This document shows, piece by piece, positions 4,360-55,202 of a DNA stretch of 55,202 bases. Below the pieces are notes generated by a model. It did no database searches. It was not told where the DNA came from and saw only the letters and a program-made list of their open reading frames with translations. Source of the stretch: a bacterium (GTDB lineage Bacteria > Patescibacteriota > Minisyncoccia > Minisyncoccales > GCA-002788555); NCBI GenBank assembly GCA_021158595.1, contig JAGGUF010000072.1, forward strand, positions 1 through 55,202, in the 5' to 3' direction. Within the stretch, counting starts at the first letter, position 1. Each line of letters starts with the position of its first letter. Both the position numbers and the translations under genes were made by a program.

Positions 4360-4488
4360 CCCCTCCCCCCTCCTTAATCCTCCCCCTCCCTGTGGGAGGG
4401 GGAGGATATAGGTGGGGGAGGGATTTCCCGCTCCACGCTCCACGCTTCAGGTAATTCTCAAACCCCTACCAAGTGGTTGGCAATTACA
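4360..4488. repeat. Hairpin-core repeat with extended flank (CACGCTTCAGG ... GGCAATTACA)
   Basis: Core 4360-4422: CCCCTCCCCCCTCCTTAATCCTCCCCCTCCC-TGTG-GGAGGGGGAGGATATAGGTGGGGGAGGG. The flank matches the reverse complement of 38248-38326. Confidence 0.85.
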
Positions 4489-5519: not shown

Positions 5520-5592
5520 GCCCTTGTAGTTCAATTGGATAGAACCTCTCCCTCCGGAGGAGAAAATGCAGGTTCAAGTCCTGCCAAGGGCA
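5520..5592 (+). tRNA. tRNA-Arg (anticodon CCG)
   Basis: Cloverleaf read by hand: acceptor GCCCTTG/CAAGGGC, D arm GTTC/GAAC, anticodon arm TCTCC-CTCCGGA-GGAGA, T arm GCAGG-TTCAAGT-CCTGC, discriminator A. Confidence 0.9.
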
Positions 5593-5648: not shown

Positions 5649-5708
5649 ATTATCTTCTTATCCTCTGATCAAAAATTCCTTTTAGACCTTCGCCTACTGT
5701 TTTCATTT

Positions 5709-5924
5709 ATGGAGATTCTTTCCATTTTTCAGATAATTGTCTCTTTTTTGCTTATTGCCTCAATTCTCCTTCAGCAAAGAGGATCGGGTCTTTCTTCAGT
5801 ATTTGGAGGTAGCGGCGAAGGTGGGTATTTTCAGAAAAGAGGAATGGAAAAAATTCTTTTTAGAAGCACAATTTTTCTTTCAATTATTTTTTTCGCCTTG
5901 GCTATAGCAAACTTTGTTCTCTAA
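5709..5924 (+). CDS. secG: Preprotein translocase subunit SecG
   Basis: 71 aa with two TM helices and the typical LLQQRGSGLSSVFGGSG loop. Confidence 0.8.
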   Translation: MEILSIFQIIVSFLLIASILLQQRGSGLSSVFGGSGEGGYFQKRGMEKILFRSTIFLSIIFFALAIANFVL

Positions 5925-6020
5925 AAGAGAGGTTTTTAGAAGGAGAAAAATAATTTACTGTTAAGAAATATTAGAAGCCCAACTCAAAAACTAATTAAGA
6001 TAAGAGATTTCTTTGAGAGA

Positions 6021-7754
6021 TTGTTTTACCTTGAGAAATGGAAGAAAAACAAGAATAAGTGGCCGTCAAAAAGACAGTGGTTTTCTTTTTTCACTGTTAT
6101 TTCAAAAAGAGAAAAAACCCTCTTTTTTCTCTTTTTATTTTCAGGTATCCTCTCTTTAATTTTTTGGCATCATTTCTCTTATTTAGAGAATACTGAACTT
6201 CAACCAGCCGAGGGAGGAATTCTAAAAGAAGCAATAGTAGGACAACCTCAGTCTTTAAATCCTATTCTCTCCTTGCTAAATGATGCTGATAGAGACATTT
6301 CTGAACTTACCTTTGCCGGCCTTTTAAACTATGACAAAAATGGAAATTTGGTTTGCGATCTCTGTGAGAAATATGAAATAACTGATAAGGGAAAGGGTTT
6401 CGAATTTACCCTAAAGAAGAATCTTCTTTGGTCAGATAACAAAAAAATTACTGCTAACGATGTAGTCTTTACTATAGAAACTATTCAAAATCCAGAAATC
6501 CAGAGTCCTCTAAAACTCGTATGGAAAGATGTAAAGGTAGAAGCCATAAATGAAAGAAAGGTAAAATTTACCTTAGAAAATCCTTATCCTCTTTTTCTTA
6601 AAAATTTTACCTTAAAAATTATACCATCTCATATCTTCAAAGAAACCACACCCCAAGAATTTCCTACCATCTTAACAGAAAGGTTTGTTGCTTCAGGTCC
6701 ATTTAAAATAAAAAATATTGAGAAGGATAAAGAAAATAAAATTAAAAAAATCATCCTTGAAAGAAATCCAAACTATTATGGAAACTCACCATTCCTGGAA
6801 GGAATAGAAATAAGTTTTGTAAAGAACAAGAAAGAACTTTTGGGTATTAGAGAAGAGGAAACAAGTTTGTCTGGAATTTCAGCCGCAGAAAAAGAAGAAC
6901 TAAAAGAAGAGGATTTTAATTTTTATTCCTTTGCCCTTCCCCGGTCTTTTGCGCTATTTCTAAACCAACAAAATGAACTTCTTTCCAAAAAAGAGATAAG
7001 AGAAGCCCTGGCTTCAGCCACTAATAAAAAGGAAATTGTTGAGAAGGTTCTTTTAGGAGAAGGAAGAATAGTAGATGGTCCCTTTCTTAAAGAAAACAAA
7101 ATTGGAGGAGAAATAAAAAAATATGAGTTTAACTTAGAAAAAGCCAAAAAGATATTGGAAAATGCCGGCTGGAAGGATACTGACAATGATAACATTCGAG
7201 ACAAAACAATTAACGAAAAGAAGTTTTCTCTAAAATTCAACTTATTTTTGGTAAAACAACCAGAACTTGAAAAAACAGCAGAGATTATAGAAAAAGATTG
7301 GGAAAAAATAGGAGTTAAGATAAATATAAATCCTATGGAACCCCAAGAACTTCTCCAGGAACATATTGAAAAAAGAAACTATGATATCTTGCTTTTTGGT
7401 CAAGACATCTCAATCATTCCTGACCCCTATCCCTTTTGGGCTTCTTCCCAAAAGGAATATCCAGGTTTAAATCTGTCTTTATATCAAAACCCGGAGGTAG
7501 ATAAAATTTTAAAAAATGCTCGGACAGAAAACGATGAAAACAAAAGAAAAAAACTTCTTCAAGACTTCCAATTAAAACTTACCGAAGATATCCCCGCAAT
7601 TTTCCTTTATAGTCCAAATTATATTTATGCTGTAAGAAAAGAAATCAAAGGAATTGAAGGAAAATATATAAATGATATTTCAAAAAGATTTATAGGAATT
7701 GAAAATTGGTATATCAATGAAAAAAGGGTACCGAAGAAGAGTAACCAAAAATAA
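6021..7754 (+). CDS. ABC transporter substrate-binding protein, family 5 (peptide/nickel type)
   Basis: 577 aa with an N-terminal TM/signal anchor; family-5 SBP-like blocks (LNPILS..., NPNYYG, AGWKDTDNDNIRDK). The ORF opens with TTG, so the exact start is uncertain. Confidence 0.65.
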   Translation: MFYLEKWKKNKNKWPSKRQWFSFFTVISKREKTLFFLFLFSGILSLIFWHHFSYLENTELQPAEGGILKEAIVGQPQSLNPILSLLNDADRDISELTFAGLLNYDKNGNLVCDLCEKYEITDKGKGFEFTLKKNLLWSDNKKITANDVVFTIETIQNPEIQSPLKLVWKDVKVEAINERKVKFTLENPYPLFLKNFTLKIIPSHIFKETTPQEFPTILTERFVASGPFKIKNIEKDKENKIKKIILERNPNYYGNSPFLEGIEISFVKNKKELLGIREEETSLSGISAAEKEELKEEDFNFYSFALPRSFALFLNQQNELLSKKEIREALASATNKKEIVEKVLLGEGRIVDGPFLKENKIGGEIKKYEFNLEKAKKILENAGWKDTDNDNIRDKTINEKKFSLKFNLFLVKQPELEKTAEIIEKDWEKIGVKININPMEPQELLQEHIEKRNYDILLFGQDISIIPDPYPFWASSQKEYPGLNLSLYQNPEVDKILKNARTENDENKRKKLLQDFQLKLTEDIPAIFLYSPNYIYAVRKEIKGIEGKYINDISKRFIGIENWYINEKRVPKKSNQK

Positions 7755-7759
7755 CTCTT

Positions 7760-7843
7760 GCCGAAGTGGCGGAACTGGAAGACGCGACGGCTTCAGGAGC
7801 CGTTGGACGTAAGTCCTTAAGGGTTCGAATCCCTTCTTCGGCA
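7760..7843 (+). tRNA. tRNA-Leu (anticodon CAG), type II with long variable arm
   Basis: Acceptor GCCGAAG/CTTCGGC, anticodon arm ACGGC-TTCAGGA-GCCGT, long variable arm, T loop GGTTCGAATCC. Confidence 0.9.
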
Positions 7844-7914
7844 CATTCAAGAGTTCAGTAATATCAGCACAACAAATAATAAAACTTAGGATCTCTAAAA
7901 ATCTTTCTTGAAAT

Positions 7915-9615
7915 ATGAAGGGAGGTTTCAATTTTTCAGCAATACCAAGTCCCTCTACTCTTAAAATCATTCCCCTTGGAGGTCTGGATGAAATAGGGAA
8001 AAACATGACCCTCTTTGAATATGGAGGAAAGATTTTAATTGTTGATATGGGTTTGCAATTCCCTGATACGAAAATGCCTGGCATTGACTACATTATTCCT
8101 AATGTCTCTTATCTTCAAGGGAAAGAGGAAAACATTTTAGGGGTTATTTTTACTCATGGTCACTATGACCATATCGGCGCTATTCCTTATCTTATCCAAA
8201 AGATAGGAAATCCTCCTCTATTTGCCACTCCCCTAACCAAAGGAATCATTTTAAAACGTCAGGAAGATTTCCCTTCAGCGCTAAAACTCAATCTACATCA
8301 GATAAAAAGGGAAGATGAAATTTCTCTTCCTCCTTTTATTATCAAAACCTTTCCCCAAAATCATAACATTCCTGACAATATTGGGCTTTTAATCAAAACT
8401 CCTGTAGGAAATATTCTGCATACTGGTGATTTTAAATTTGACCTTACTCCTATTGCTGACAATCCTACCAATATTTCAAAGATAGCGAACCTCTGTCAGG
8501 AAGGAATTTTACTTTTGATGTCTGATTCTACCAATGCCGAGGTGCCGGGATTTAGTCTTTCTGAAAAAAATATCCAAGAAAATCTTGAAAAAATCTTTGA
8601 GAAAGCAAAAGGAAGAATCATTGCTGCTACATTTGCCTCTCTACTCTCTCGAATTCAAGAATTGATTAACCTGGCGGAGAAATTTAGAAGAAAGGTTATT
8701 ATCGAAGGCTATTCTATGAAATCTGATGTAGAAATTGGGGTTAAACTGGGATATATTAAGATAAAAAAAGACACATTAATTACCCCAAGAGAACTTCGCC
8801 ATCTTCCCGACAGAAAGATTTTAATCATCTGCACAGGCTCTCAGGGTGAGGGAGATGCAGTTTTAATGAAACTTTCACATAAGGAACATCCATTTATTTC
8901 TATTAAAAAGGGAGACTCTGTCATTCTCTCTTCTTCTGTAGTTCCTGGAAATGAGAGATCAGTTCAGGAGTTAAAAGATCTTTTGTCTTATCAGGGAGCA
9001 AGAATCTTTCACTCTCAAATGATGGACATTCATGCTACCGGTCATGCTCAAAGAGAGGAACTAAAAATGATGATAAACATTGCCAAGCCTAAATTTTTTA
9101 TGCCTATCCATGGCAGTCGTTATATGCGAGAAATTCATAAAGAGATTGCCTTAGATCTAAAAATTCCGGAAAAAAATATTATCATCGCCCAAAATGGGAG
9201 TATAATTGAATTGAGGAAAGACAGCATAAAGATTAGAAAAGAAAGAGTGCCAGCAGGTTATGTAATGGTTGATGGTCTCGGTGTAGGAGATGTGGGAGAG
9301 GTGGTGCTTCGCGACAGACAAATGATGGCTCAGGACGGAATGTTTGTAATCGTGGTAATAGTTGATGCCTCAACTGGCAAGGTGGCTCAGAGTCCTGATA
9401 TTATCTCTCGAGGATTTGTTTATCTTCGAGAATCAAAACAACTCCTGCGAGAGGTAAGAAAGAGGGTAATAAGACTGGTAGAAAAAATAACCGTCTCAAA
9501 ATATCCTGCAAACTTTACCTTTGTGAAAAATAAAATTAGAGAAGACTTAGGAGAGTTTCTCTTTAAAAAAACCTCAAGAAGACCAATGATATTACCTGTA
9601 GTGATAGAAGTCTAA
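7915..9615 (+). CDS. rnj: Ribonuclease J (MBL/beta-CASP)
   Basis: 566 aa; LKIIPLGGLDEIGKNMT start, HxHxDH motif (FTHGHYDHIG), beta-CASP and C-terminal domain length typical of RNase J. Confidence 0.85.
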   Translation: MKGGFNFSAIPSPSTLKIIPLGGLDEIGKNMTLFEYGGKILIVDMGLQFPDTKMPGIDYIIPNVSYLQGKEENILGVIFTHGHYDHIGAIPYLIQKIGNPPLFATPLTKGIILKRQEDFPSALKLNLHQIKREDEISLPPFIIKTFPQNHNIPDNIGLLIKTPVGNILHTGDFKFDLTPIADNPTNISKIANLCQEGILLLMSDSTNAEVPGFSLSEKNIQENLEKIFEKAKGRIIAATFASLLSRIQELINLAEKFRRKVIIEGYSMKSDVEIGVKLGYIKIKKDTLITPRELRHLPDRKILIICTGSQGEGDAVLMKLSHKEHPFISIKKGDSVILSSSVVPGNERSVQELKDLLSYQGARIFHSQMMDIHATGHAQREELKMMINIAKPKFFMPIHGSRYMREIHKEIALDLKIPEKNIIIAQNGSIIELRKDSIKIRKERVPAGYVMVDGLGVGDVGEVVLRDRQMMAQDGMFVIVVIVDASTGKVAQSPDIISRGFVYLRESKQLLREVRKRVIRLVEKITVSKYPANFTFVKNKIREDLGEFLFKKTSRRPMILPVVIEV

Positions 9616-9675: not shown

Positions 9676-9983
9676 TGTACAGTTTCACCACATTGTTTAC
9701 AATACTTTTTACAATAATAAGGAATTTCCTCCCCTTCCTTAATCCTCCCCCTCCCTCTGGGAGGAGGAAGAAATTGAGGAGATCCTCCTTAATCCTCCCC
9801 CTCCCTTTGGGAGCGGCGAGGATATAGATGGGTTTCCTTTCAAATCCTCCCCCTCCCTTTGGGAGGGGGAGGAGATAGGTGGGGGAGGGAAAAATAAAAA
9901 TAAATATAGGAAAAGGCAAAAGTCAAATACAAAGATTAAAGAGAAATTTGTCCTAATTGTGAACAACGTGGTGAAACTTTACA
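9676..9983. mobile_element. MITE-like non-coding element: 28-bp terminal inverted repeats enclosing three tandem hairpin cores
   Basis: Left end TGTACAGTTTCACCACATTGTTTACAAT (9676-9703). Reverse complement of the right end is TGTAAAGTTTCACCACGTTGTTCACAAT (9956-9983); 25/28 identical. The interior holds three core units (9738-9898). No ORF with coding character. Confidence 0.7.
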
Positions 9984-13416: not shown

Positions 13417-13458
13417 ACTTCTTCTTTTTATCAAAAAAAATAAGGTTTTGCAACCAGA

Positions 13459-13530
13459 AGCCGAGGAGAGGACTCGAACCTCCAACCTACGGTTTACGAT
13501 ACCGCTGCTCTACCATTGAGCTACCTCGGC
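13459..13530 (-). tRNA. tRNA-Thr (anticodon CGU)
   Basis: Minus-strand cloverleaf: acceptor GCCGAGG/CCTCGGC, D arm GCTC/GAGC, anticodon arm GCGGT-ATCGTAA-ACCGT, T arm GGAGG-TTCGAGT-CCTCT. Confidence 0.9.
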
Positions 13531-13538
13531 CTGAAACT

Positions 13539-14910: not shown

Positions 14911-14938
14911 ATTTTACAAAACCCGCCCTGGGCGGGTT
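14911..14938 (-). terminator. Intrinsic terminator after rnpB
   Basis: Minus strand reads AACCCGCC-CAG-GGCGGGTT followed by TTTTGTAAAATTT. Starts 3 nt after the P1 3' strand of RNase P RNA. Confidence 0.6.
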
Positions 14939-14940
14939 AT

Positions 14941-15290
14941 GAGGGTAATTGTAAGCCGAATTCTGTCCCTCTTTGATAAAAGAGGTGGTAGTCATTTCTC
15001 TTGACCTGAAATTACTTTCAGGTTCAAGCCCTTGGATACCAGTTCCAAGGTTGCACCAAGCAGGGTTTACCACGAACTCTGATCTCTCAGAGCCGAGAGA
15101 GGTTTCACCTCTCACTTTTCACCTTTCTCTCGCTCCCATAGGAACGAGATAGTATAGTCTCTGTGGCACTTTCCCTACCCTCTCGGGTGGTGGGTGTTAC
15201 CCACTGCTTACTTCCGGGCTTATAGTCAGCCCGGGGTGTTCGGACTTTCCTCCCCCACCAATTAGGTGGAGGCGACTACCCATTACCCTC
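14941..15290 (-). ncRNA. rnpB: RNase P RNA, bacterial type A
   Basis: Minus strand starts GAGGGTAATGGGTAGTCGCC and contains GGAGGAAAGTCCGAAC (CR-I). It ends GACAGAATTCGGCTTACAATTACCCTC (CR-V, with the P1 3' strand pairing to the 5' end). Confidence 0.9.
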
Positions 15291-15298
15291 TTTCTATC

Positions 15299-21927: not shown

Positions 21928-21996
21928 CCCTCCCCCACCTATATCCTCCCTCTCCCAGAGGGAGGGGGAGGATTAAGGAGGGGGTGAAACTGTACA
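21928..21996. repeat. Hairpin-core repeat (opposite orientation) plus partial terminal repeat
   Basis: CCCTCCCCCACCTATATCCTCCCTCTCCC-AGAG-GGAGGGGGAGGATTAAGGAGGGG, then GGTGAAACTGTACA (reverse complement of the 9676 terminal repeat start). Ends 1 nt before the stop codon of the 21998 gene. Confidence 0.8.
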
Positions 21997-36755: not shown

Positions 36756-36910
36756 TAAAGTTTCAGCACATTTAACCCCTCTTTGTATTCCTCCCCTTAA
36801 AAAGGGGGAGGAAATTGAGGTGTGGTATTCTCCTAAAAGAGAAAATAAGGACCCTCTCCAAATCCTCCCCCTCTCTCTGGGAGAGGAGGATTAAGGTGGG
36901 GGAGGAAAAG
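36756..36910. repeat. Repeat cluster: partial terminal repeat plus two Y/R hairpins
   Basis: TAAAGTTTCAGCACATTT (36756-36773) resembles the 9676 terminal repeat. Hairpins: CCTCCCC-TTAAAAA-GGGGAGG (36790-36811) and AATCCTCCCCCTCTC-TCT-GGGAGAGGAGGATT (36861-36892). Lies upstream of rpsT. Confidence 0.7.
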
Positions 36911-38247: not shown

Positions 38248-38470
38248 TGTAATTGCCCACATCTTGATAAGGATCTGGGATTGCCTGAAGCGTGAAACGC
38301 AAATTTCCAAAATTAAATCTCAAATTCCCCCACCTATATCCTCCCCCTTCCAGAGGGAGGGGGAGGATTAAGGAGGGGATCCTAAATCCCAAACGTTTGG
38401 AATTTGGAATTTCGTTCGCCCAGCCCTACTTTTGGAACAAAAGTGGGGCTGGGTTTCGGATTTCTCCCCC
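38248..38470. repeat. Composite repeat: GGCAATTACA/CACGCTTCAGG flank (inverted), hairpin core, AT-rich units, GGGGCTGGG hairpin
   Basis: Core 38327-38378: CCCCCACCTATATCCTCCCCCTTCC-AGAG-GGAGGGGGAGGATTAAGGAGGGG. Hairpin 38419-38453: CCCAGCCCTACTTTTG-GAAC-AAAAGTGGGGCTGGG. Fills the holA/acyP convergent spacer. Confidence 0.85.
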
Positions 38471-41614: not shown

Positions 41615-41863
41615 CTTAAATGTTAGATGTCAAATCTCAAATCCATATGTCAAATCTCAAATCTAAATACAGTAAAGAAAAATCCGAAATTCTAAATCCT
41701 AATGTTTCAAATTTTAAACGTTTGGGATTTCGGATTTCCCTTCCCCTCCTTAATCCTCCCCCTCCCTCTGGGAGGGGGAGGATATAGGTGGGGGAGGGAA
41801 AATCCCAAATCCTAAATTCTAAACGTTTGAGATTTGGAACAAAAGTGGGGCTGGGTTTCGGAT
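41615..41863. repeat. Composite repeat: tandem ATGTCAAATCTCAAATC units, hairpin core, AT-rich units, half GGGGCTGGG module
   Basis: 17-nt direct repeat at 41627-41643 and 41647-41663. Core 41738-41798: CCCTTCCCCTCCTTAATCCTCCCCCTCCC-TCTG-GGAGGGGGAGGATATAGGTGGGGGAGGG. GGAACAAAAGTGGGGCTGGGTTTCGGAT at 41836-41863. Confidence 0.85.
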
Positions 41864-41994: not shown

Positions 41995-42075
41995 TTATCT
42001 TTTCTTTCTTTTTCTTGAACTCTTTTTCTTTGTGCTCTTACTTTTCTTTGTCTTTCTTGTTTTCTTTTTAGCCAT
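41995..42075 (-). CDS. Candidate 26-aa highly basic micro-protein
   Basis: ATG GCT AAA AAG ... AGA TAA gives MAKKKTRKTKKSKSTKKKSSRKRKKR. The strong terminator begins ~15 nt after the stop. Below the ORF-track length cut-off. Confidence 0.3.
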   Translation of the reverse strand: MAKKKTRKTKKSKSTKKKSSRKRKKR

Positions 42076-42185
42076 TTTTCTGCCTGCCCTAATCAGCAGG
42101 TTTTTTTAGAAGCAGTAAATAGTCGGCCTCCACTATTTACTTTTATAGATTATAAACTTTTAAAGAACCAAATGCAATATTTATT

Positions 42186-46497: not shown

Positions 46498-48149
<1,652 letters not shown>

Positions 48150-49145: not shown

Positions 49146-49353
49146 AACCAATAAGGTTATATCCAAGATGAAAGTTGACACCTTTTTACCATCTTACATA
49201 TTATGGACAAAACTGGAAATATTTCCAATGTTTTTAATAATCCCTCCCCCTCCTTAATCCTCCCCCTCCCTTTGGGAGGGGGAGGATATAGGTGGGAGAG
49301 GGAAATCTTCCTCTATTAACTGTTAACTTTTATTTTGCATTCAACCAATAAGG
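49146..49353. repeat. Repeat copy flanked by 11-bp direct repeats (atpA/atpG spacer)
   Basis: AACCAATAAGG at 49146-49156 and 49343-49353. Core 49242-49302: CCCTCCCCCTCCTTAATCCTCCCCCTCCC-TTTG-GGAGGGGGAGGATATAGGTGGGAGAGGG. Confidence 0.75.
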
Positions 49354-52079: not shown

Positions 52080-52832
52080 TTATTTTTCACCCAAATCTTG
52101 AGACCTTGAATTTGCGACCTTTTGTTGTTGAGAATGCTCTGTGGCGCTAGTATAAAAAATGACTACCAGAGAAGAAAAGATAAGAGCCTGTATAAACCCC
52201 ACAATAATTTCTAATGCCAAAAATGGTAGAGGAACAAAATAGGCAATCAAAAAGGAACTAATTATCAAAAGCACCTCTCCGGCAAATATATTCCCAAACA
52301 ACCGAAAGGCAAGAGAAAAACACTTGGTAATCTCACTTATCCCTTCTAAAATGCCTACAAAAAAGAGAATAGGATTCTTGAAATTTAAAAATCTTTTAGA
52401 ATAGGTAAAAAAGCCTAATCGTTTAAGAGAAAGGATATTTATAAAAATAATAGAGAAAAGAGCCAAGCCAAGAGTAAGATTTAAATCAGAGGTTGGAGCC
52501 CGCAAAAAATGAAAAACTCCCAATCCTGGAAGCAATTCTACATAGTTACAAAAAAGAATAAGAATAAAAAGAGTAGCGGCTATAGGAAAAATCTCTTTGG
52601 TCTTTTTTCTATCACGGGTAATAGAATCAATGAAATTAAAAATAGACTCCAAAATCCATTCAGCAAAATTTTGGAGTCTGGAAGGAATAAACTTCCTATT
52701 TTTAAAAACAAAATAGAAAACAGCAAAAATAAGAATCTCAATAATGAGACTCAAAAGAAAGGTGTTTGTTATATCAAAACCAAAGAGCCCAAATAGTTTC
52801 TCTCCAGAAATAGTAATATCAGGCATCCCCAT
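52080..52832 (-). CDS. atpB: ATP synthase Fo a subunit
   Basis: Polytopic; conserved Arg helix SLAFRLFGNIFAGE. Confidence 0.9.
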   Translation of the reverse strand: MGMPDITISGEKLFGLFGFDITNTFLLSLIIEILIFAVFYFVFKNRKFIPSRLQNFAEWILESIFNFIDSITRDRKKTKEIFPIAATLFILILFCNYVELLPGLGVFHFLRAPTSDLNLTLGLALFSIIFINILSLKRLGFFTYSKRFLNFKNPILFFVGILEGISEITKCFSLAFRLFGNIFAGEVLLIISSFLIAYFVPLPFLALEIIVGFIQALIFSSLVVIFYTSATEHSQQQKVANSRSQDLGEK

Positions 52833-52944
52833 ATAATAGATATAAAGAAGTTTTTGTTCTTATTTTAGAGATTAAAAATCTCAATACCTTGTATTATTCT
52901 TTCTGCTAAAAATTATATACCTTTTTACCTATCTCTGTCAAGAT

Positions 52945-53053
52945 CCCTCCCTCACCTCTCTCCTCCCCCTTCCCAGAGGGAGGAGGATTGGGGAGGATCT
53001 CCTCAGTTATCCTCCCCCTCCCTTTGGGAGGGGGAGGACTAAGGAGGGGTGGG
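52945..53053. repeat. Two adjacent hairpin-core repeats upstream of the atp operon
   Basis: 52945-52996: CCCTCCCTCACCTCTCTCCTCCCCCTTCCC-AGAG-GGAGGAGGATTGGGGAGG. 53009-53053: ATCCTCCCCCTCCC-TTTG-GGAGGGGGAGGACTAAGGAGGGGTGGG. Confidence 0.85.
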
Positions 53054-53137
53054 AGAATATCAGATCTTACCAAACTCTTTATTTAGCCAATGGATGATCT
53101 TTAACTGTACCCTATGTACCCGACGAGTTCTACCCCC

Positions 53138-53166
53138 TTGACAAGATTTTGGTGATATGCTATAAT
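53138..53166 (+). promoter_or_regulatory. Perfect consensus sigma70 promoter with extended -10
   Basis: TTGACA (53138-53143), 17-nt spacer, TGcTATAAT (-10 at 53161-53166). Confidence 0.7.
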
Positions 53167-53170
53167 GTAG

Positions 53171-53534
53171 ACGGAAAAATAAAGGAGGCTTTGAAAATTA
53201 AAGCGTATGGGCCAGATTGACCTCGCTCCTTAAGATTTAAGAGCAGGGTCGGTCAGCCCTCGCTATTATTAGTAATGAGTGCCTCCCAGCCCCACCTTTT
53301 GGCTGAAGATTTTAGCCAAAAGTGGGGCTGGGTGCACTCCTTACTAAAGGAGTAATAGCACTTTTACAAAGGCACTCAAAGGGGAAGGAGAGAATAATTC
53401 TCTGTGGCCAAGGATTGCTTATCAATATACAAAATGGTAAGTAATCCTCGGCCACAGAGATTTGCAATTTCAGTGATTCAATGACGAAAAAAAATGGGCC
53501 AATAAAAATAAAAGTTAGGAGGTGAAAAGAAAAA
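53171..53534 (+). ncRNA. Candidate structured RNA / long 5' leader
   Basis: No credible ORF. Three long hairpins: H1 53209-53259 (with G-U pairs that only work on the + strand), H2 53271-53345 (contains the GGGGCTGGG repeat hairpin 53285-53332), H3 53399-53460. Confidence 0.4.
53399..53460 (+). promoter_or_regulatory. Long hairpin following a conserved AGCAC box (unit 1)
   Basis: TCTCTGTGGCC/GGCCACAGAGA plus AGGATT/AATCCT. The loop contains TTATCAAT...TGGTA. Box AGCACTTTTACAAAGGCACTCAAAGGGGAAGGAGA at 53357-53391. Confidence 0.55.
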
Positions 53535-53894
53535 ATGGAGGAAGAAATGAAAGAGGAAAAAAAGGAAAGGCCATCGCATCCTCCAAGGGAAGAATTCCTT
53601 GCTGTGAAGACAGCGAGGGAACTGATAAAGAAGAGAAGTGAAGAGATACAGAAAATACGAGAGAGACAATCGAAAGCAACCAAGTTTTTGGTCGCCCTCG
53701 ATGATATTCGTCAAGAACTACAAGTAAACTTCATTAAATTTACGTTCCAAGACGGAACAATGATTATCAGGGATGTAGACGAAAAGCGGTTCTACATACA
53801 AAAGGGGAACGAAAGAAAAGAGATTGACGTTCAGAAGGACTATGACCTCGTGCTCCATCTAGCGAAGCAGAAAGTATTACAGGTTGAAGGATAG
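53535..53894 (+). CDS. Hypothetical protein (orphan, E/K/R-rich)
   Basis: 119 aa. A strong Shine-Dalgarno AGGAGGTGA sits 9 nt upstream, unlike most genes in the window. Composition is visibly GC-richer than the neighbouring genes. Confidence 0.6.
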   Translation: MEEEMKEEKKERPSHPPREEFLAVKTARELIKKRSEEIQKIRERQSKATKFLVALDDIRQELQVNFIKFTFQDGTMIIRDVDEKRFYIQKGNERKEIDVQKDYDLVLHLAKQKVLQVEG

Positions 53895-54037
53895 AAATAA
53901 AACACCTTTTATTTTTTCTCCTTCCTTCCTTTTTTCAGTCCATAAATTGAGTTTGTGGATTGAAAAAAGCCCTCAACCTTAAGGGTTGAGGGGAAAAGCA
54001 CCTTAAAAAGGCACTCAAAGAGGAAGGAGAAGGAGAA

Positions 54038-54092
54038 TTCACATCACCCGAATTGTTTATCAATTTTTGGTAGATAGTTCGGGTGATGTGAA
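54038..54092 (+). promoter_or_regulatory. Perfect 15-bp hairpin occluding the ribosome-binding site of the next ORF (unit 2)
   Basis: TTCACATCACCCGAA / TTCGGGTGATGTGAA. The 3' arm contains GGTGAT (SD-like) and ends 2 nt before the ATG at 54095. The loop contains TTATCAAT...TGGTA. Box AGCACCTTAAAAAGGCACTCAAAGAGGAAGGAGA at 53997-54030. Confidence 0.6.
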
Positions 54093-54094
54093 AA

Positions 54095-54970
54095 ATGAAT
54101 ATAATAAAGAAAAAAAAGGTGGTGAAGGTACAGCTGAAGGGACAGGGCACGGGCTATAGTGCCCTGGACAAGGAATTCATAAGGTTCATAGAGGAAAGAG
54201 GCATCACTCCGCTCCGCAGAGAATCAGGCCTCATTCGCCATACCTCCTGGCAGTACGAGACATACGTGTTCGGAAAAAGGTACTTCCAGAAATTCGAGGA
54301 AGACCTCAGGAAGGTGCTGGATGAGCGAGAAAAAGAGCTGAATATTAGAAGAGAAGTAGATTTTTATATAGAACAACTTTTCAGTTATGTAATCAGGTAT
54401 GCAAGAAGAGAAGGGATAGGCAATGAAGAAGAAATTGAGAAAGAAATCAAGGAATGGGGACTTAGTCCCCTTACGATAAAAATCATCAAATTACTCAGTG
54501 AATATCCAGAGGAAGCGGCGGATGATATAGTGGCAAAGATAGTGAAGCGAGCGATAGCAGAGGGAAAATACAAAAAAAATGAGGACTGGGAGGTCGCCCT
54601 ATGCGGGCGACGATGGAGTTTCGTAGAAGATGAACATTGGATTTACAAGGTAATTAAAGAGGATTGCCGGAAGGAAATTCTTCCAAAGTACCAAGAATTC
54701 AGAAGGTATCTTGGAGATTTCTATTTTGGCAGCGAACTTTCCTCCGCCTCCATCGATGAGCAGAAAGAAGCGTTGAAAAGATGGGGAGAAGCAGCCAAAA
54801 AGCTTAGAGAAGTGCTCGGAAAGTCCGTGGGCATTTACCCAGATTGCATTTATCTGGGTAAATGTAGTGAGGAAAATCTAAAAAAAGCCAGAGAGGCGGT
54901 GAAAGTCTTTGGGATGTCAGTAATACCAATGCCCCAGTACAAAGACCAGTTTATCGTAGTAATCCAGTAA
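54095..54970 (+). CDS. Hypothetical protein (orphan)
   Basis: 291-aa ORF with C/G-ending codons (CTG, GGC, CGC, GCC, TAC) that are rare elsewhere in the window. No motif recognised. Confidence 0.6.
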   Translation: MNIIKKKKVVKVQLKGQGTGYSALDKEFIRFIEERGITPLRRESGLIRHTSWQYETYVFGKRYFQKFEEDLRKVLDEREKELNIRREVDFYIEQLFSYVIRYARREGIGNEEEIEKEIKEWGLSPLTIKIIKLLSEYPEEAADDIVAKIVKRAIAEGKYKKNEDWEVALCGRRWSFVEDEHWIYKVIKEDCRKEILPKYQEFRRYLGDFYFGSELSSASIDEQKEALKRWGEAAKKLREVLGKSVGIYPDCIYLGKCSEENLKKAREAVKVFGMSVIPMPQYKDQFIVVIQ

Positions 54971-55060
54971 TCCCTTCTCCTTCCCTTTTTTCCCTTTTTC
55001 TAGCGGACAAAAATTTGTCAATTAGAAAAAGGAAAATAGCACTTTAAAAAATTCAAAATT

Positions 55061-55150
55061 CCTCCTGCTGATTAAGATTCTAAGAATCGCGAATTTACAC
55101 AAATATAAACACGAATTTTCGCGAATTTTAGAGTTTTAATCAGCAGGAGG
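55061..55150 (+). promoter_or_regulatory. Perfect 15-bp outer hairpin ending at an ATG (unit 3)
   Basis: CCTCCTGCTGATTAA / TTAATCAGCAGGAGG enclose an inner TCGCGA-containing repeat pair. The 5' arm carries anti-SD-like CCTCC and the 3' arm AGGAGG. AGCACTTTAAAAAA box at 55038. Confidence 0.55.
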
Positions 55151-55202
55151 ATGAAACTTCTGCTGAGGAGGAGAAAGATGAGAGAAGGAGAAGGAAGAAA
55201 AA
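55151..55202 (+). CDS. Partial ORF running off the window end
   Basis: ATG at 55151 and an in-frame ATG at 55178. The latter is preceded by GAGGAGGA at 5-nt spacing and is the more likely start. Only 17 codons are visible. Confidence 0.25.
   Translation, partial: MKLLLRRRKMREGEGRK

Follow-up and report, generated by a model that had tools for sequence, protein, structure and literature searches.

We analysed a 55,202-nucleotide (nt) stretch of bacterial DNA (hereafter the window; the whole of the metagenome-assembled contig JAGGUF010000072.1 of assembly GCA_021158595.1, lineage Patescibacteriota) and found that it ends in the 5' half of a gene-cassette island of about 3.3 kb, which runs from window position 53138 to about position 8470 of L006. 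L-numbers denote the metagenomic loci and contigs that were compared. From 5' to 3', the island comprises a promoter, a structured leader, two orphan open reading frames (ORF1 and ORF2), a Cys-rich ORF3, a predicted DHH/DHHA1 gene (ORF4) and a terminator, with spacers built from recurring RNA modules (Table 1). An earlier reading of the same DNA, here called the original prediction, had described a compositionally foreign module at the window end with a promoter, a structured RNA and orphan ORFs in a repeated layout, and each of its elements was found in place or a few bases away. It had also regarded the module as truncated by the window; the locus indeed continues past 55202 in L006 and L001, which carry the remainder. 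Our preferred explanation is that the island is probably a horizontally acquired array of cassettes whose spacers act as sense-RNA scaffolds.

Composition and coding content

In composition, the island is foreign to its AT-rich, Shine-Dalgarno (SD)-poor host. In 1-kb intervals, the G+C (GC) fraction is 0.41-0.43 at 53-55 kb and 0.28-0.40 over 1-53 kb. GC at third codon positions (GC3) is 0.467, 0.476, 0.538 and 0.587 in ORF1, ORF2, ORF3 and ORF4, against a mean of 0.291 (standard deviation 0.028, maximum 0.334) in the resident reference set of 39 window ORFs of at least 150 aa each, which places ORF1 and ORF2 more than 6 standard deviations above the residents. Duplexes with the anti-SD sequence reach -11.5 to -11.9 kcal/mol for ORF1, ORF3 and ORF4, compared with a resident mean of -2.4, and a 4-mer SD core lies upstream of just 10 of the 39 resident ORFs in a rough survey that took the first ATG as the start codon. 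The compositional shift and the strong SD of ORF1 in a mostly SD-poor host, both asserted in the original prediction, are thus borne out by the computed profiles. The prediction had further raised the worry of a chimeric join near 53.1 kb, which is excluded because five independent assemblies from different samples (L002, L006, L007, L008 and L009) cross the junction between the upstream repeats and the island at 99-99.9% identity. The atp operon is also present in L002 and L006.

ORF1 and ORF2 gave nothing meaningful in Pfam, PHROG, PADLOC or NCBIfam, and among 5.8 billion clusters they matched only their own near-identical copies. An exhaustive HMMER search with ORF2 against 1.84 billion representatives returned the protein itself and one repeat-like match at 4e-7. 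With family and cluster searches empty, the earlier statement that neither protein has a recognisable domain stands. A sequence match of ORF2 to designed armadillo repeats in the PDB (E = 2e-5) was rejected as low-complexity and not meaningful, and its single-sequence AlphaFold2 model, with a predicted local distance difference test (pLDDT) score of 45, was unusable. Indels among strain variants occur in the spacers and in none of the ORFs, which fits genuine coding regions. As for substitutions, ORF3 carries 19 in 273 nt (10 synonymous, 9 not), ORF2 has a 60-nt patch of clustered strain changes (L001 7390-7450), and ORF1 and ORF4 are nearly invariant.

Promoter and leader

The module opens, as had been proposed, with a textbook promoter that matches the consensus at every position and carries an extended -10 element; a 32-nt stretch here is 91% identical to a head promoter of the L089 array at 1839-1867. 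Promoters scoring at least 11/12 are confined to array heads, L089 having three of this head type, and most spacers are without sigma-70-like sites. Downstream, the leader (53170-53534) folds with a minimum free energy (MFE) of -145.6 kcal/mol (z = -11.8), and dinucleotide shuffling gives z = -13.6 and -11.0 for the intergenic regions IGR2 and IGR3. Spacers of other arrays range from -4.6 to -11.6 and most host spacers from -2.4 to +0.8, with two exceptional host spacers at -5.4 and -6.0. Apart from the last small hairpin (CTCCTTA..AAGGAG, 53337-53352), the leader sequence is not conserved in related arrays, and searches of 52800-55202 against Rfam by gathering score and by E-value found no family, the sub-threshold matches being spurious miRNA hairpins. 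Of the long structured RNA announced in the original prediction, the strong folding therefore survives, whereas the element itself is a 5' leader with unconserved hairpins and no Rfam family.

Table 1. Coordinates of the island features, of the modules shared with related arrays and of the neighbouring repeats. Positions refer to the window unless a locus is named.
Feature	Position	Strand	Remarks
Head promoter, TTGACA-N17-TGcTATAAT	53138-53166	+	12/12 consensus, extended -10
Structured 5' leader	53170-53356	+	hairpins at about 53186-53206, 53209-53259, 53262-53359
Box 1, AGCACTTTTACAAA-GGCACTCAAAG	53357-53381	+	BoxA-like half plus second conserved half; nhmmer profile
Purine tract R1, GGGGAAGGAGAGAA	53381-53394	+	SD-like
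Long hairpin D4	53396-53462	+	29-bp arms, 86% complementary
SD of ORF1, AGGAGGTGA	53517-53525	+	anti-SD duplex -11.5 kcal/mol
ORF1	53535-53894	+	119 aa, orphan
Pyrimidine tract Y, TTCTCCTTCCTTCCTTTTTT	53916-53935	+	after ORF1 stop; pairs with purine tracts
Hairpin A2, TTTTTTCAGTCCATAAA / TTTGTGGATTGAAAAAAG	53930-53969	+	same module at L089 4287 and L086 1733
Small GC hairpin C, CCCTCAACC-TTAAG-GGTTGAGGG	53970-53992	+	boxB-like position
Box 2, AGCACCTTAAAAA-GGCACTCAAAG	53997-54020	+	nhmmer profile
Purine tract R2, AGGAAGGAGAAGGAGAA	54021-54037	+	
Long hairpin D1, CATCACCCGAA.../...TTCGGGTGATG	54038-54092	+	ends 2 nt before ATG, buries GGTGATG
ORF2	54095-54970	+	291 aa, orphan
Pyrimidine tract Y	54973-55000	+	after ORF2 stop
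Hairpin A, CTAGCGGAC.../...GTCAATTAG	54995-55030	+	conserved internal loop
Box 3, AGCACTTTAAAAAATTCAAAA (GCACTTTAAAA)	55038-55058	+	1 mismatch to GYTCTTTRANA
Long hairpin D3, TTCCTCCTGCTGATTAAG.../...TTAATCAGCAGGAGGA	55059-55151	+	
ORF3 (start)	55178-55202	+	90 aa, Cys-rich, GC 52.7%; cut by window end, continues at L006 7147-7419
ORF4	L006 7421-8356		predicted DHH/DHHA1, 311 aa, GC 51%
Terminator hairpin after ORF4	L006 about 8368-8415		
Shared untranslated-region/N-terminal module	L089 3268-3330, 4375-4440, 5592-5650; L086 2069-2245; L087 58-1203; L088 430-540		
REP-like sites	37-65, 4378-4406, 9727-9873, 21944-21972, 36863-36906, 38339-38367, 41754-41782, 48014-48077, 49242-49286, 52961-53038		

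Spacer modules

The spacers share a grammar. From 5' to 3', each begins after the stop codon with a pyrimidine tract, a terminator-like hairpin or both, continues with one or two short hairpins and a single-stranded box, and ends with a purine tract and a long hairpin at the ribosome-binding site (RBS). The box has the form G(C/T)(A/T)C-TT-A-A followed by GCACUCAAA, and the long hairpin, of 25-34 bp, abuts or buries the RBS. In L089, L086, L092 and L088, too, a small hairpin of type C is found 3-6 nt before the box. A profile built from 16 boxes matches the window at 53351, 53992 and 55031 only, so that by this measure the regulatory modules occur nowhere else in the 55 kb. The three matches confirm the repeated unit layout of the original prediction; the long hairpins, described there as perfect, are 85-88% complementary and include G·U pairs.

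The spacer hairpins are sense-RNA structures. Across six aligned homologues of hairpin D1, 94.7% of the cells are paired, 7 of the 25 pairs are compensatory, and 21 cells are G·U on the plus strand; the covariation score lies above 500 of 500 shuffles, and register-slid controls are at most 48% paired. Read from the opposite strand, the 21 G·U cells would turn into A·C mismatches, which places the hairpins on the sense RNA; inspection by eye shows a G·U bias in D3, D4 and B too. In hairpin A, alignment of five homologues shows a conserved base on which the apical stem has been swapped for different self-pairing sequences. Purine tract R1 forms duplexes of -24 to -25 kcal/mol with the pyrimidine tracts after ORF1 and ORF2, compared with -13.6±4.5 for shuffled sequences.

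The 3' arms of the D hairpins hold the SD-like sequences GGTGATG, GAGGAGGTAA and AGGAGGA, which pair with anti-SD-like sequences in the 5' arms (CATCACC, TTACCTCC and TCCTCCT), and the purine tract, which is strongly SD-like in its own right, runs up to the base of the hairpin, so that closing the hairpin leaves it a few bases away from the ATG. This arrangement can be read in two ways: the D hairpin may sequester the RBS until it is cut or melted, or it may bring the upstream SD-like tract beside the start codon. T4 genes 25 and 38 provide a precedent for a hairpin that brings the SD near the start.

A family of related arrays

The same grammar recurs in at least eight other metagenomic loci (L089, L086/L087, L080, L082, L088, L091, L092/L093 and L094), which, L089 apart, came from a DNA-pattern scan of metagenome contigs and from contigs bearing DHH relatives at 57-64% identity. 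Box profile matches are confined to array loci and always fall on the coding strand, and the modules are restricted to the clade in which the DHH protein is at least 57% identical. The closest relative of the DHH protein, at 67% identity, belongs to L089, an extended version of L011, whose 8-kb island holds twelve plus-strand ORFs separated by 150-400-nt spacers, with the DHH gene last; it starts right after two tRNA genes and ends before prfB. Wherever a 3' end is visible, the DHH gene closes the array. The flanks, visible in three arrays, are all different: the atp operon and a CYTH gene for the window island, tRNAs and prfB for L089, and two small unannotated minus-strand genes and a membrane gene for L086. 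Some spacers have an alternative start, a terminator-like hairpin T (GGAGGAAG..CCTTCCTCC plus a T-run) followed by hairpin B (TTTTTAAG..TTTAAAAATG), and spacers of the L089 type have a box (AGCACATTGAAAAGCACTCAAA), a purine tract (GGGAAGGAGAA) and a long hairpin, D1-D4 or E, before the start codon.

Modules and genes are combined in different ways. D1 stands in front of five unrelated ORFs at five places, and D4 with the SD AGGAGGTGAAAAG precedes ORF1 in the window and directly precedes the DHH gene in L094. D3 always lies before the gene coupled to DHH. In the window this gene is ORF3, in L089 it encodes 208 aa, and in L086 it encodes a Zn-ribbon protein of 58 aa; L087 has the Zn-ribbon protein as a fusion with DHH. 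The base of D3 is conserved at L089 7149 and L086 about 1786-2020. The cargo is not conserved between arrays. Many of its products are orphans, and among the rest are a small membrane protein with two helices, an AAA+ (AAA_5) ATPase, a protein with a weak radical-SAM match and one with a polyprenyl-synthetase-like segment. A known defence system was considered and rejected for want of a convincing PADLOC match: ORF1-4 had none, and the AAA+ cargo of L080 gave P-loop-level matches only. The differing neighbourhoods, together with the composition and the SD signals, point to acquisition and to the exchange of cargo between shared modules. Foreign GC3 and SD usage, non-syntenic arrays and variable cargo likewise uphold the earlier view of a horizontally acquired unit with its own regulatory logic.

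Several further observations concern the arrays. A shared 5' untranslated-region (UTR) module (ACAAGGATGGG-loop-CCC-TAGGAGA) accompanies an N-terminal M-x-D-x-x-G-D-R-E-N-G-Q motif in several cassette ORFs, and such a leader is fused to the DHH protein in L087 (with the Zn ribbon) and L088. Related cassette peptides of 35-38 aa at L089 1553-1669 (..VATGGGLYHNSQEA..) and L086 3730-3837 (..VATFGGFFGSSEEA..) form a small family within the arrays. On L079 (Ga0210040_10089113), an unrelated short contig, positions ~540-1000 hold more than 20 tandem copies of the 22-nt GCACATTGAAAGCGCATTCAAA, which resembles two box halves head to tail. Finally, AATCTCTCTCC occurs at a tRNA 3' end (L089 774-784) with a second copy at the right-hand end of the L089 island (8902-8912), and the right end of L094 (about 1437-1450) carries the same motif, AAATCTCTCTCC, in the same place. 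This 11-12-nt match may be an att-like core or a chance occurrence, and as about 0.05 such matches are expected by chance, it is a weak hint of site-specific insertion.

The DHH/DHHA1 gene

ORF4 is a predicted stand-alone DHH/DHHA1 phosphodiesterase with a two-domain fold. This assignment draws on invariant motifs, a structural model and structure matches. Residues H14, D16, D18, D63, D90, H91 and H92, which make up DHH motifs I-III, are invariant in 38 aligned relatives, and an AlphaFold2 model on that alignment has a pLDDT of 95.7. Foldseek searches of the PDB with the model returned the pGpG phosphodiesterase PggH and, alongside it, an archaeal PAP phosphatase, the GdpP catalytic domain, TM1595, NrnA and RecJ, each with probability 1.0 at about 14% identity; full-length alignments were obtained for PggH, PAP phosphatase, GdpP, NrnA and RecJ. 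Pfam PF01368 scores 16.0 bits on ORF4, below its cut-off of 28.1, and some relatives have a precomputed PF01368 match. The protein has 57 related clusters, nearly all unnamed. GGGH is the substrate-binding motif of DHHA1 domains; it is not visible in the consensus of the ORF4 alignment, whose conserved C-terminal block reads LPSGAPFRVS with S282 and G283 invariant.

The stop codon of ORF3 overlaps the start of ORF4 (TGAAATG), an arrangement of translational coupling. As the only enzyme recognised in the island, ORF4 resembles, on its modelled fold, a nanoRNase or dinucleotide phosphodiesterase. More distant DHH relatives, no more than 52% identical, from Patescibacteria, Peregrinibacteria, Saccharibacteria and some archaea, are without island modules, and the best match in a genome collection searched with the DHH profile was 46% identical, with no boxes in those loci.

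A candidate BoxA-type element

The box may be a BoxA-type antitermination element. The published BoxA consensus, GYTCTTTAANA, is gamma-proteobacterial (PMC5725501); for scoring we relaxed it to GYTCTTTRANA, with R at position 8. Sequences in the slot, G(C/T)(A/T)C-N-TT-N-A-N-A, lie 0-3 mismatches from this pattern (2 in Box 1), and matches with at most 2 mismatches occur at only 0.26% of positions in the same loci. C4, T6 and T7 are invariant across boxes, and C4 and T6 are the positions that were mutated to abolish the function of the suhB BoxA (PMC5725501). Canonical forms also fill the slot (GTTCTTTGAAAA and GTTCTTTTGAAAA in L092, GTTCTTTTACAA in L088). In L008 and L009, the Box 1 allele is GTTCTTTTACAA where the window and L007 have GCACTTTTACAA, in strains about 99% identical, and canonical GTTCTTT variants appear in four loci, this allele included.

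The surroundings of the box resemble those of a ribosomal RNA (rrn) leader. In MFE folds, the box is unpaired or weakly paired, a hairpin ends 3-6 nt upstream, and the element lies downstream of consensus promoters; one L089 box about 25 nt downstream of a sigma-70 promoter must lie inside the transcript. Leaders of rrn operons have the order boxB-boxA-boxC. There, boxC contributes the leader strand to a leader-trailer helix of 25-40 bp, which is kept near the polymerase through NusB-bound boxA (PMC10250234). The island modules follow a similar order of hairpin, 3-6 nt, box and purine strand, and the complement of that strand follows immediately on the next stop codon. The E. coli rrsH leader reads TGCTCTTTAACAA, 22 nt, GGGCACTCGAAG, and the window reads GCACTTTTACAAA directly followed by GGCACTCAAAG. 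In a post hoc comparison, the second half of the box might also be likened to the E. coli boxC-like GGCACTCRAAG. Overall, we regard the BoxA assignment as tentative and judge it slightly more doubtful than not.

Proposed explanation and alternatives

Taken together, these findings lead us to propose that the locus is probably a horizontally acquired gene-cassette island of about 3.3 kb with sense-RNA scaffolds, from which we infer antitermination, processing and shuffling. The consensus sigma-70 promoter would drive the leader and all four genes. A BoxA-type box would load a NusB/NusE antitermination complex and would be re-seeded in each spacer, so that the polymerase could cross long, untranslated, terminator-rich stretches. 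The long hairpins and the purine/pyrimidine helices may serve as RNase III-type processing or stability elements and as translation gates, and recombination between shared modules may shuffle the cargo, as in the cassettes of T4-type phages discussed below. A bolder version, which we consider rather doubtful, would make the island a hitherto undescribed cassette platform, used by Patescibacteria-like bacteria, that does without an integrase. Every foreign gene would come as a miniature rrn-style unit, in which a boxB-like hairpin, a BoxA-like element and a purine "leader" strand precede the gene and a pyrimidine "trailer" strand follows it. The island would borrow host Nus-factor antitermination and double-stranded RNA processing to express SD-dependent cargo in a host that makes little use of SDs, and the modules would act as recombination handles that shuffle cargo before the conserved Zn-ribbon/DHH pair.

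Several points weigh against this explanation. Within the AT-rich window, GYTCTTTAANA with at most 1 mismatch is not enriched (29 observed, 29.4 expected), position 3 of the box is mostly A, giving GCAC rather than GYTC, and neither the window nor any fetched locus has an rRNA gene whose boxA could be compared. Nus complexes of the rrn type suppress Rho-dependent termination far better than intrinsic termination, and several spacers hold hairpin-plus-U-run terminators, so that transcription across those spacers is left unexplained. Pairing between the purine and pyrimidine tracts is generic and shows no preference for particular partners. All related arrays lie on short metagenomic contigs, and the precomputed Pfam matches of the called genes of L006, L001, L089 and L086 include no recombinase domain. 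Mobility, finally, we infer from two things only, the non-synteny of the arrays and the 11-12-nt tRNA-end match in L089 and L094.

An alternative account takes the box as the promoter of a dedicated sigma factor or of a phage-type RNA polymerase, making each cassette its own transcription unit composed of a terminator hairpin, the box promoter, a purine-rich 5' UTR and the ORF. Many spacers do have a GC hairpin and T-run just upstream of the box, most are without a sigma-70-like promoter, and the box is followed by GGGAAGGAGA, which is reminiscent of the T3/T7 promoter ...CACTAAAGGGAGA. However, boxes also lie about 25-190 nt inside transcripts from the sigma-70 promoters at array heads, and the spacing from CACTCAAA to the G-run varies from 1 to 7 nt; on these two grounds we demoted the T7/T3-type idea. 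The complete L089 island, moreover, encodes no RNA polymerase or sigma factor, and canonical BoxA-like variants fill the slot. We therefore consider a promoter function unlikely.

It is quite unlikely that the island is a phage or plasmid remnant lodged in the chromosome, for example a hyperplastic region with promoter early stem-loop (PeSL) elements. Such an origin would suit the foreign composition, the orphan ORFs and the strong SDs as well as the consensus promoter and the terminator-like hairpins, and regulatory cassettes flanking ORFans have a phage precedent (PMC2839356). Yet the box pattern in IMG/VR gave 11 single matches, which is chance level, no significant PHROG matches were obtained, and the DHH family has no relative among IMG/VR viruses, INPHARED phages or PLSDB plasmids, so that the viral option left open by the original prediction is not supported. 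The complete 8-kb L089 island is also without structural, replication and integration genes, and housekeeping genes lie on both flanks. A PeSL region proper was rejected: terminator-like stem-loops are present, but the spacers do not each have a sigma-70 promoter and the island is not in a phage.

An integron-like array, with the repeats as attC-like single-stranded DNA sites and a tyrosine recombinase encoded elsewhere, would account for the single head promoter, the small orphan cassettes, the conserved imperfect palindromes and the cargo that varies between genomes. Nevertheless, no intI-like gene lies beside any array among the called genes of L006, L001, L089 and L086, and no GTTRRRY or RYYYAAC core occurs within 53101-55202. 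The hairpins are located upstream of the ORFs and contain the SD, their G·U pairs fit sense RNA, and each spacer holds several module types instead of one attC, making this alternative very unlikely. Hardly credible, and disfavoured, is the view that a nanoRNase-type DHH enzyme is encoded here in an operon of ordinary kind, inherited vertically, whose composition and structure reflect only its expression level: DHH relatives at 31-52% identity do occur as single genes in housekeeping neighbourhoods of Patescibacteria and other genomes, but here GC3 exceeds the residents by more than 6 standard deviations, neighbourhoods differ wherever flanks are visible, upstream genes are unconserved, and the modules are limited to the clade with DHH at least 57% identical.

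Flanking sequence and other features of the window

Beyond ORF4, a hairpin with a T-run is followed by a second hairpin, repetitive extragenic palindrome (REP) repeats and then a CYTH gene encoded on the opposite strand. The GGGAGGG palindromes (GGGAGGGGGAGGA) at 52940-53060, just upstream of the island, belong to a genome-wide REP-like repeat and lie outside the module. This palindrome, TCCTCCCCCTCCC-N3-GGGAGGGGGAGGA, occupies at least 12 intergenic sites in the window, with 32 arm matches against about 2 expected, and metagenome assemblies of this genome often break at such repeats. A second 12/12 promoter, on the opposite strand at 52941-52912, serves the atp operon.

In L001, a ribosomal-protein S8/methyltransferase context (5662-6320) is joined to the island at window position 53394, the foot of hairpin D4. 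The island part of L001 is the L008/L009 strain variant, and because that variant has the normal leader context in L008 and L009, we distrust the join, which is probably a mis-assembly or a second copy.

Elsewhere in the window, the only Rfam and ARAGORN matches were a class A RNase P RNA (14936-15291, minus strand) and three tRNA genes, Arg-CCG (5520-5592), Leu-CAG (7760-7844) and Thr-CGT (13457-13531). A tiny, very basic ORF (MAKKKTRKTKKSKSTKKKSSRKRKKR) at 41996-42073 on the minus strand has a terminator hairpin and its own promoter, TTGCAT-N17-TATAAT, at 42140-42170 on the same strand.

Significance and relation to known systems

We found no prior description of such gene-cassette arrays in the literature searched. 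They show a recurring way to carry and express orphan genes, in which unrelated genes are fitted into a constant RNA "socket". Little is understood of genome plasticity in the Candidate Phyla Radiation (CPR)/Patescibacteria, to which the host probably belongs, and few types of mobile element have been described there. If the BoxA assignment is true, Nus antitermination, a feature of rRNA operons, lambdoid phages, suhB and CRISPR arrays, would extend to acquired protein-coding cassettes, and the GCAC and GTTC boxes would form a natural allelic series for BoxA recognition. The modules also supply specific sequence tags for finding more arrays and cargo in metagenomes, and biochemistry has a defined target in the conserved DHH/DHHA1 enzyme and its variable Zn-ribbon partner. 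Beyond the original prediction, the analysis adds the extent of the island, its anchor enzyme, the family of arrays, repeats that operate at the RNA level and a testable model of antitermination and processing.

The enzyme has structural counterparts. PggH (7d62), NrnA, GdpP and PAP phosphatase (8a8k) share its two-domain fold, and their HxDxD, D and DHH residues are invariant in the ORF4 family. In contrast to these proteins, ORF4 has a conserved PSGAPFR apparently in place of the DHHA1 GGGH, and unlike known stand-alone DHH/DHHA1 proteins, the island enzyme has a variable small protein, often Cys-rich or of the Zn-ribbon type, coupled or fused upstream.

As arrays, the islands recall chromosomal integrons, for example the Vibrio VCR arrays, in their head promoter, tandem small orphan cassettes, structured repeats and variable cargo. 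They differ in having neither an integrase nor attC cores, and their repeats are sense RNA that carries translation signals.

In their transcription signals, the likeness is to rrn operons and the lambda nut sites: a hairpin, a single-stranded GYTCTTT-A-A-like box, the 5' strand of a long-range helix and its complement after the enclosed gene, with the signal repeated within the operon and long duplexes suited to RNase III. Unlike rrn and nut units, the array genes encode proteins and the box usually begins with GCAC; box and purine strand are 10-15 nt apart here, whereas boxA and boxC are separated by 18-19 nt in enterobacterial rrn operons.

PeSL elements of T4-type phages are stem-loop regulatory motifs that flank ORFans in hyperplastic regions, where recombination between the motifs has been proposed to shuffle modules (PMC2839356, Arbiol et al. 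2010; PMC4122927, Comeau et al. 2014). Here too the same motif flanks unrelated genes, as D1 does for five ORFs and D4 with its SD for ORF1 and DHH. A PeSL unit is a short sigma-70 early promoter with a terminator stem-loop, however, whereas the island spacers measure 200-400 nt, comprise at least five module types, mostly have no sigma-70 promoter, reside in bacterial chromosomes and lead to a DHH gene. By analogy, the island may thus be likened to a PeSL-type region in how its cargo is shuffled and, if the BoxA assignment holds, to an rrn or nut unit in how it is transcribed.

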